NCBI GenBank assembly: GCA_001816585.1
Contig: MHCJ01000003.1
Location: 348,228 to 412,227 of the forward strand
DNA length: 64,000 nucleotides
Direction of reading: 5' to 3'
Source of the DNA: Candidatus Chisholmbacteria bacterium RIFCSPHIGHO2_01_FULL_52_32
GTDB lineage: Bacteria; Patescibacteriota; Microgenomatia; UBA1400; Chisholmbacteraceae
Shown: positions 2,152 to 2,204 of the stretch, one piece after another
Numbering within the stretch: the first letter of the stretch is position 1
Layout of the letters: each line of letters starts with the position of its first letter
Notes under the pieces: model-generated
Database searches by the model: none
What the model saw: only the letters and a program-made list of their open reading frames with translations
What the model was told of the DNA's origin: nothing
Translations under genes and position numbers: made by a program

Positions 2152-2204
2152 GGGTTGAGGGTTGAGGGTTGAGGGTTGAGGGTTGAGGGTATAGGGTATA
2201 GGGG
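2152..2204. repeat. heptamer minisatellite (GGGTTGA)x5 (GGGTATA)x2 GGGG; G-quadruplex-capable on the plus strand; lies between the convergent lepB and parB stops
   Basis: Perfect tandem units read directly from 2152 to 2204. GGG runs are spaced by 4 nt. Confidence 0.9.

Follow-up and report, generated by a model that had tools for sequence, protein, structure and literature searches.

What purpose, if any, is served by G-rich tandem repeats that take up the entire gap between two genes in a genome that leaves very little room between genes at all? The question is raised by a stretch of 64,000 nucleotides from Candidatus Chisholmbacteria bacterium RIFCSPHIGHO2_01_FULL_52_32, an uncultured bacterium of groundwater and a member of the Candidate Phyla Radiation (CPR)/Patescibacteria (contig MHCJ01000003.1, positions 348,228 to 412,227; this whole stretch is referred to below as the window). 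Homologues of its ParB and GT4 proteins put it near the Microgenomates within CPR/Patescibacteria. Two arrays of G-rich heptamers occur in it, array 1 between the convergent genes lepB and parB, and array 2 between two GT4 glycosyltransferase genes that are read in the same direction (Table 1). The arrays are probably slippage-generated heptanucleotide simple sequence repeats (SSRs), situated in spacers that tolerate unstructured filler, and are themselves tolerated rather than required. This reading is drawn, at the level of sequence, from 64 kb of this genome together with consensus assemblies, and the evidence of these sequences points away from a conserved function based on G-quadruplexes (G4s).

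Both arrays are real and lie far beyond chance. The pattern GGGN4GGGN4GGGN4GGG has nine matches in the window, every one within array 1 or array 2, against an expectation of 0.01 from 100 dinucleotide-preserving shuffles, and the shorter GGGN4GGGN4GGG does not occur elsewhere in the window, which holds two such arrays. Read directly, array 1 contains eight G-runs and array 2 nine in all; Tandem Repeats Finder (TRF) returns 5.9 copies of period 7 with 100% matches for the former, and 7.3 copies of the same period with 97% matches for the latter. A preliminary description of this DNA had reported two heptamer arrays with the common unit GGGTATA, and its coordinates and unit counts were right within 2 nt. 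Array 2 is identical, with the same copy number, in five independent assemblies (one from NCBI, one from JGI and three from ENA), and array 1 is present in three further contigs (L216, L217 and L219), each of which terminates within it; accordingly, the arrays are not assembly artefacts. Other short-read contigs from several samples terminate at the parB stop codon (L218, L220) or within array 2 (L003). Dispersed seeds derived from the array units were considered as well and rejected, as singleton unit heptamers outside the arrays are about as frequent as expected by chance.

The placement of the arrays is equally tight. By naive calling of open reading frames (ORFs), the window is approximately 93% coding, and each array begins 1-3 nt past the stop codon of a minus-strand gene, with distances of 1-13 nt to the flanking ORFs. 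Array 1 occupies the whole 60-nt gap between the two stop codons, and array 2 does likewise in the 68-nt gap that runs from the upstream GT4 gene's stop codon to the ATG of the second GT4 gene. The earlier observation that both stand directly 3' of minus-strand stop codons in compact DNA is borne out by the Pfam assignments and the coding density. That both follow minus-strand genes is likewise true, but its evidential worth is weak: of the 60 gene junctions in the window, 45 join two minus-strand genes in tandem, so that two arrays in this position are to be expected.

The parB-lepB spacer can be followed through relatives, which share the gene order ileS, ftsW, rplU, methyltransferase gene, rpmA and parB, the last of these facing a convergent lepB. 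In the parB sense, the spacer of the window reads TAG-CCCC(TATACCC)2(TCAACCC)5TCCTTTCC. Among five related species-level lineages, with ParB proteins 78-82% identical to that of the window, a shorter or different array is seen in two and none in the other three. The first of the two (L207-209; ParB 78%) has a 37-nt spacer with a degenerate CCCTAAA/CCCTATA remnant, ACCCCCATACCAAACCCTAAAACCCTAAACCCTATAC, and the second (L211; ParB 82%) has the spacer CCCTATA-CCCCTAAA-(TCCTAAA)9, the complement of which contains GG runs only. The array is absent from L210 (ParB 79%), where the spacer measures 11 nt, and from L214 (ParB 79%), where it measures 2 nt, while the 120-nt spacer of L212/213 (ParB 80%) is non-repetitive. 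The same junction differs even between strains. In L215, where ParB is 100% identical to that of the window and approximately 3,850 flanking positions hold only five differences (99.9% identity), an unrelated sequence of 70 nt (L215:2555-2624) stands in place of the 60-nt spacer. This replacement starts within the lepB stop codon, which is TAG in the window and TGA in L215, and ends with three units of another heptamer, ACTTTTG ACTTTTA ACTTTCA. Two of the five flanking single-nucleotide polymorphisms fall no more than 35 nt from the spacer, which suggests that the swap was a short recombination patch. Taken together, the spacer swap in L215, the arrayless lineages and the GG-only units of L211 mark array 1, as far as these sequences go, as a strain-variable and dispensable allele whose G3 tracts are not kept where an array persists. 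One conserved junction thus displays the array in full, decayed, re-amplified without G3 tracts, absent, and replaced within a strain pair, a natural experiment that favours rapid turnover over a G4 function under conservation.

At the locus of array 2, a relative with a GT4 protein of 72% identity (L223) retains a decayed array, CCCTATA TCCTATA CCCTGTA CCCTTTA ACCTTCA, immediately before the ATG, and in L221/222 (GT4 66%) the two GT4 genes overlap by 4 nt, leaving neither spacer nor array. The CCCTAWA unit family is therefore found at two unlinked loci and in several relatives, with arrays gained and lost.

The period of these repeats is itself the prevailing one in CPR DNA. In 486 kb of CPR parB neighbourhoods, a detector written for this analysis returned 19 arrays of period 7, two of period 8 and a single one of period 6, the remaining periods between 4 and 12 being unrepresented. 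Over approximately 556 kb of CPR DNA the respective counts were 21, two and one, compared with 0.2 in shuffles, and TRF reported 19 period-7 arrays as well as 10 with period 14 and four with period 21; part of this sample consists of ParB relatives at 59-68% identity, among the matches listed. Period 7 is also the commonest TRF period in the window. The CPR units are highly varied (AAGTTCA, TTAGAAA, TAATTCG, CATCAGC and others), and, as the AT-rich arrays in the ftsW-rplU spacer of the window make plain, this genome does not confine its heptamer arrays to G-rich units. Nor are the repeats restricted to spacers. Seventeen period-7 arrays lie in frame within ileS at 14 loci from as many CPR lineages (L127-L206, L208), at three recurrent loop positions, namely after EWYIAMDK, after FFVTYANLDGW and after IKVRQPL, where they encode peptides such as KFKVQSS (examples are L139:556-589, L174:1137-1169, L177:1438-1469 and 1895-1924, L129:851-889 and L208:5277-5302). 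That such AT-rich arrays only appear to lie within ORFs, owing to over-extended ORF calls, was rejected, since tblastn places them truly in frame in ileS. Heptamer slippage seems to shape the loops of the essential IleRS protein.

A wider view comes from a scan of prokaryotic species genomes for at least four consecutive GGGTNNA units, which found at least 120 stretches in many phyla, including at least five CPR groups. The cross-phylum sample described here comprises L007-L126, among the matches listed, with ORFs called naively. About two-thirds of its arrays are intergenic. Their flanks divide into 21 gene 3' ends with the G strand as sense, 22 gene 3' ends with the C strand as sense, and 20 and 25 gene 5' ends, respectively; 3'-end flanks thus number 43 and 5'-end flanks 45, with no bias toward either and no preference of orientation. 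A positional bias toward gene 3' ends, as put forward in the preliminary description, is contradicted by these counts and by the fact that some arrays are coding: G3-heptamer arrays lie truly within the genes for MutL (in a linker; L019), BipA (L087), SecA (in the C-terminal linker; L090) and a UbiD-like protein (L069). The use of mixed units in the CPR arrays, in which GGGT and A are constant around a variable middle, as a sign of selection on G-tracts was rejected, because the search pattern itself imposes that bias. Two observations from the sample may be recorded in their own right. The BipA/TypA gene of L087 contains a G-rich array (3962-3989, + strand) and a C-rich array (4019-4046) as an inverted pair 29 nt apart, which translates as GLGFRVEGIG...PKPYTLNPIP and looks like an inserted palindromic element. 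Additionally, pure GGGTTTA arrays occupy the extreme ends of short contigs of metagenome-assembled genomes assigned to Rhodocyclaceae and Rhodothermales (L118:7-58 and 4035-4086; L010:6-85); these may not be bacterial sequence but stem from contaminating eukaryotic telomeres or from wrap-around in the assembly.

A mechanism in keeping with the favoured reading can be outlined. Replication slippage would create and remodel heptamer arrays in non-essential intergenic spacers, assisted now and then by recombinational replacement of an entire spacer. This would be part of a general process: the tandem repeats of CPR/Patescibacteria, like those of many other bacteria, favour period 7, and the G-rich GGGTNNA/CCCTNNA units are one lineage-typical flavour. 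Point mutation would yield a variant unit that is then amplified locally, and this would account for the block structure of the arrays, in which runs of one unit adjoin runs of a variant that differs by one or two bases: (GGGTTGA)5 stands by (GGGTATA)2 and (GGGTATA)5 by (GGGTTTA)2, and L211 has (TCCTAAA)9. Arrays would last wherever any unstructured filler does, as in a stop-stop or a stop-start gap, and both the G4 potential of one strand and the G-free, unstructured, C-rich RNA of the other would be by-products rather than conserved functions. We infer slippage as the generator, following the polymerase-footprint idea of the literature, and likewise the near-neutrality of the arrays.

Several observations weigh against this reading. 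Both arrays take up their entire spacer, which leaves no room for another signal. No hairpin terminator was found between lepB and parB, so that whatever ends these convergent transcripts must act in or beyond array 1. All relatives with a spacer of at least 37 nt preserve the excess of C over G on the parB-sense strand, and the recurrence of CCCTAWA units might be due to selection for a binding factor and not to a shared mutational bias. Across phyla, intergenic arrays stand nearer to whichever ORF lies 5' of the G strand than to the one 3' of it (median 20 versus 154 nt; 35 versus 12 cases, p = 0.001); this asymmetry disregards the direction of the ORF and may owe something to artefacts of ORF calling, and such proximity is not obviously predicted by pure neutrality. 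Whole-spacer occupancy, the lack of a hairpin terminator, the recurrence of the unit family and the 5'-side asymmetry thus leave functional readings some probability.

Such readings differ chiefly in the strand to which they assign the function. As had been stated earlier, the mRNAs of parB and the GT4 genes carry the C-rich strand, whereas read-through from lepB would carry the G-rich one: the G-rich strand is lepB-sense at array 1, where the parB-sense strand is C-rich and G-free, and the mRNA of the GT operon carries the C-rich strand of array 2. Upstream of rplU stands a strong promoter-like site, from which a single transcript may run through rplU, the methyltransferase gene and rpmA to parB, the last gene of this string, and end at array 1. 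It is conceivable, if unlikely, that the C-rich, G-free and unstructured RNA is a Rho loading (rut-like) site that would end the rplU-parB transcript before it runs antisense to lepB, and that in the GT operon it is a leader for a start independent of a Shine-Dalgarno sequence. Read in the parB sense, the array-1 spacer holds 55% C against 0% G, and the array-2 spacer, read in the mRNA sense, 44% C against 1% G; the RNA of the C strand is predicted to be unstructured in both cases (0.0 and -0.5 kcal/mol). In composition alone, the former would answer to a rut site, that is, approximately 60-80 nt of C-rich, G-poor and unstructured RNA after the last ORF, and the spacers of the relatives also favour C over G in this sense. 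No RNA stem-loop with a U-tract is present at either array, so that neither qualifies as an intrinsic terminator, and in positions 1-20000 of the window such terminator-like hairpins are not enriched (28, compared with 26.4 expected from shuffles), which hints that the organism makes little use of intrinsic terminators of the canonical kind. Between array 2 and the ATG of the downstream GT4 gene stands CTCCCTCCT, in which nothing resembles a Shine-Dalgarno sequence, and the corresponding start in L223 likewise lacks one. Yet three relatives make do with spacers of 2-11 nt or with a non-repetitive one, and a near-identical strain with no array; loading Rho midway along the GT operon would be counter-productive; and the cross-phylum sample shows no preference for the C strand as the transcribed sense. 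The preliminary description had instead proposed that a G4 on the G strand, or an i-motif on the C strand, acts as a terminator, an insulator or a replication pause at gene ends, and this we hold to be quite improbable. Its claim that the G-runs fit the canonical intramolecular G4 motif stands: the + strand of the 64 kb has no canonical G4 motif other than arrays 1 and 2, which contain eight and nine G-runs and have mean G4Hunter scores of 1.58 and 1.25. The RNA of the G strand, which the 3' untranslated region of lepB would carry, is predicted by ViennaRNA with G-quadruplexes enabled to fold into two quadruplexes at each array (-18 kcal/mol at array 1 and -20 kcal/mol at array 2), and the heptamers GGGAATC and GGGGAYT, which are mostly transcribed, fold into G4 and i-motif in vitro (PMC4692102). 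As single-stranded DNA, neither strand of either array is predicted to form Watson-Crick structure (0 kcal/mol), and no Rfam family matches either array, the sole match being a tRNA. Against the proposal stand the missing conservation of G3 at the orthologous site (TCCTAAA in L211) and the lack of any array in four other lineages, the near-identical strain included. AT-rich heptamer arrays devoid of G4 potential occur in this genome and its relatives, so that G4 formation is not the property common to the class. Three of the four genes that flank the arrays transcribe the C strand, and the cross-phylum sample, with its coding arrays, offers no bias toward gene 3' ends. Termination, insulation and replication pausing by G4 or i-motif are accordingly not upheld, array 1 being dispensable and its G4 capacity unconserved.

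Two further readings have very little probability. One of them, also raised in the preliminary description, treats the arrays as contingency loci, in which slipped-strand gain and loss of 7 nt would tune the downstream surface-glycan GT4 gene, or parB or lepB, by phase variation. Array 2 does lie in a glycosyltransferase/polysaccharide operon, a classic setting for phase-variable SSRs, and unit number differs between species. Three MEGAHIT contigs assembled at k=141 break at or in array 1 as well, probably because two alleles co-occur in one sample series; copy-number heterogeneity as the cause of contig breaks was rejected, those at k=31 (Logan) being explained by the 41-nt perfectly periodic stretch. 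The copy number of array 2 is however the same in five independent assemblies at the consensus level, and array 1 differs between strains by replacement of the whole sequence and not by unit number, which leaves the phase-variation proposal without its expected signature. Both arrays are outside ORFs, so that steps of 7 nt leave every reading frame intact. No promoter spacer was seen to span an array, and a promoter scan that covered the array-1 region reported no promoter-like site in or beside array 1. The other reading, hardly to be expected either, is that of a protein-binding array, in which one single-strand or duplex binder of approximately 7 nt, for example of the OB-fold or cold-shock type, would occupy each heptamer to form a cooperative block. 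It would fit the recurrence of the CCCTAWA family at unlinked loci and in several CPR lineages, and on repeat substrates each heptamer has been noted to bind one CspB (PMC4679880). However, no candidate for such a protein was identified, units turn over freely in relatives, very different unit families coexist in one genome, and the arrays are dispensable at the strain level. Finally, a wider synthesis can be formulated, though the chance that it holds is slim: G-free C-rich/G4-capable heptamer arrays of CPR might be hairpin-free, strand-asymmetric transcript-end or insulator modules, supplied by a lineage-wide period-7 slippage bias that also inserts in-frame loops into IleRS, SecA and BipA.

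In practice, such arrays fragment short-read CPR assemblies, and they are candidate strain markers. Period 7 as the commonest tandem period in CPR DNA bears on why bacteria favour slippage by 7 nt, and its broader interest may be the greater. The better leads are probably the dominance of period 7 in CPR, the occurrence of in-frame arrays within essential proteins and the spacer swap between strains.

Table 1. Positions of the two heptamer arrays, their component blocks and neighbouring features in the window.
Feature	Position	Strand	Details
Array 1	2152-2204	+	(GGGTTGA)5(GGGTATA)2GGGG
Array 1, GGGTTGA ×5	2152-2186	+	
Array 1, GGGTATA ×2	2187-2200	+	
Array 1, GGGG	2201-2204	+	
Array 2	39260-39321	+	GGG-AGTATA-(GGGTATA)5-GGGTTTA-GGGTTTAA-GGG
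Array 2, GGG	39260-39262	+	followed by AGTATA
Array 2, GGGTATA ×5	39269-39303	+	
Array 2, GGGTTTA	39304-39310	+	
Array 2, GGGTTTAA	39311-39318	+	
Array 2, GGG	39319-39321	+	
lepB	1503-2144	+	signal peptidase I; Peptidase_S26 (Pfam); stop TAG 2142-2144, array 1 begins 7 nt on
lepB-parB spacer	2145-2204		replaced in L215
parB	2205-3020	-	271 aa, true start 3020; ParB_N and HTH_ParB (Pfam); stop TAG 2205-2207 abuts array 1
Upstream GT4 glycosyltransferase	39324-40478	-	Pfam; stop TAA 39324-39326, 2 nt from array 2
Downstream GT4 glycosyltransferase	38146-39255	-	Pfam; start ATG at 39255
Promoter-like site	4977-4948	-	TTGAAA-18-TATAAT, upstream of rplU
ftsW-rplU spacer	4779-4963	-	
Period-7/period-14 arrays	4801-4912		AT-rich units AAAGTKT/AACTTTW; in ftsW-rplU spacer
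Degenerate period-7 array	1025-1071	+	GATAGCA-type, 60% matches; adjoins tRNA gene
tRNA	1117-1188	-	sole Rfam match
90-aa ORF	726-998	+	
193-nt direct repeat, three copies	46441-46633, 48037-48229, 49976-50168		

Among the remaining features of the window, the start of parB deserves a word: a TTG-extended ORF of 282 aa was rejected, since it has no exact-protein match and the 271-aa version was matched. In the ftsW-rplU spacer, the promoter-like site is followed in turn by a purine-rich GGAGGAAGGAGGAG, A-rich heptamers of the AAAAGTT type and inverted AACTTTW-type ones; a structured rplU leader formed by these inverted heptamers was rejected, as the fold is no better than that of shuffles (z = 0.18). 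The 90-aa ORF beside the tRNA gene and the degenerate array has no Pfam match, and the 90-aa ORF at the equivalent position in L215 has precomputed GIY-YIG/T5orf172 matches. Farther along, a dispersed direct repeat of 193 nt occurs three times with 63-88% identity, at the ends of consecutive intergenic regions, and has the conserved core GAAATTTCCGTTACGCGATCTCCGAAGTAAGCGAAACT.

Several known systems invite comparison with the arrays. The unit GGGTTTA is, as had been pointed out, a circular permutation of the plant telomere repeat TTTAGGG, and G4-forming potential is common to both. The likeness is nevertheless coincidental: unlike telomeres, array 2 has two such units, at an internal site of a 1.16-Mb contig between glycosyltransferase genes and with no telomerase context. 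The phase-variable contingency SSRs of Haemophilus and Neisseria have units of 1-5 nt, or of 7 nt within ORFs or promoter spacers. The present arrays share with them short, slippage-prone tandem repeats by surface-glycan genes, but differ in their stop-stop or stop-start placement, and no unit-number polymorphism is seen in them at the consensus level.

A closer parallel lies in the repeats that are classed by their period. Heptanucleotide repeats are the most abundant class of long SSRs in many prokaryotes, and polymerase slippage, with approximately 7 nt interacting with the polymerase, has been proposed as their cause (Mrázek et al. 2007, as cited in PMC4679880 and PMC4692102). As far as that survey is represented there, it has in common with the present arrays the dominance of period 7, the enrichment in non-coding DNA and the proposed origin by slippage, and it is older than the CPR genomes. 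The literature searched contained no earlier account of period-7 dominance in CPR or of in-frame heptamer arrays in ileS, and no paper linking heptamer repeats with CPR/Patescibacteria. Lineage-typical units that form short arrays in numerous intergenic regions, frequently just before start codons and now and then within ORFs in a stop-free orientation, also characterize the STRR (short tandemly repeated repetitive) heptamers of cyanobacteria and the TAACTGA repeats of Beggiatoaceae, cyanobacteria and Bacteroidetes (MacGregor 2015, PMC4679880). Their units differ from the present ones and are not G4-capable, and they reach hundreds of copies per genome, compared with two G-type arrays in 64 kb here.

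The nearest relatives are the G-rich heptameric SSRs GGGAATC of Xanthomonas and GGGGAYT of Nostoc, which are scattered genome-wide and enriched in non-coding DNA (Rehm et al. 2015, PMC4692102). They lie mostly between aligned ORFs, less than 50 bp from ORF ends and nearer to the 5' neighbouring ORF; they vary in length and sequence among close relatives, and are largely transcribed (PMC4692102). The arrays of the window resemble them in their 7-nt unit with a tract of three or four Gs, in comprising at least four units, in their G4 capacity at the sequence level and in their non-coding position less than approximately 50 bp from an ORF end, array 2 also in lying between same-direction ORFs. 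Here too the locus is kept while unit number and sequence vary, as in the L207 remnant, L211 and L223, with several relatives and one strain arrayless. The density of two arrays per 64 kb is close to the approximately one per 27 kb of X. campestris (PMC4692102), and the asymmetry toward the ORF 5' of the G strand is reproduced in the cross-phylum sample. The differences concern the units (GGGTTGA, GGGTATA and GGGTTTA), the host, a member of CPR/Patescibacteria with a small genome of approximately 50% GC as against large genomes, and the occupancy of the whole spacer; G4 formation, demonstrated in vitro for the Xanthomonas and Nostoc heptamers, is predicted here. Repeat-containing loci are reported to show increased stability in those genomes (PMC4692102), unlike the array-1 locus with its strain-level presence and absence. 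In each feature that these sequences allow to be compared, the present arrays agree with the description of Rehm et al.; the G-rich heptamer class is thus one already described, and is here extended to CPR/Patescibacteria.

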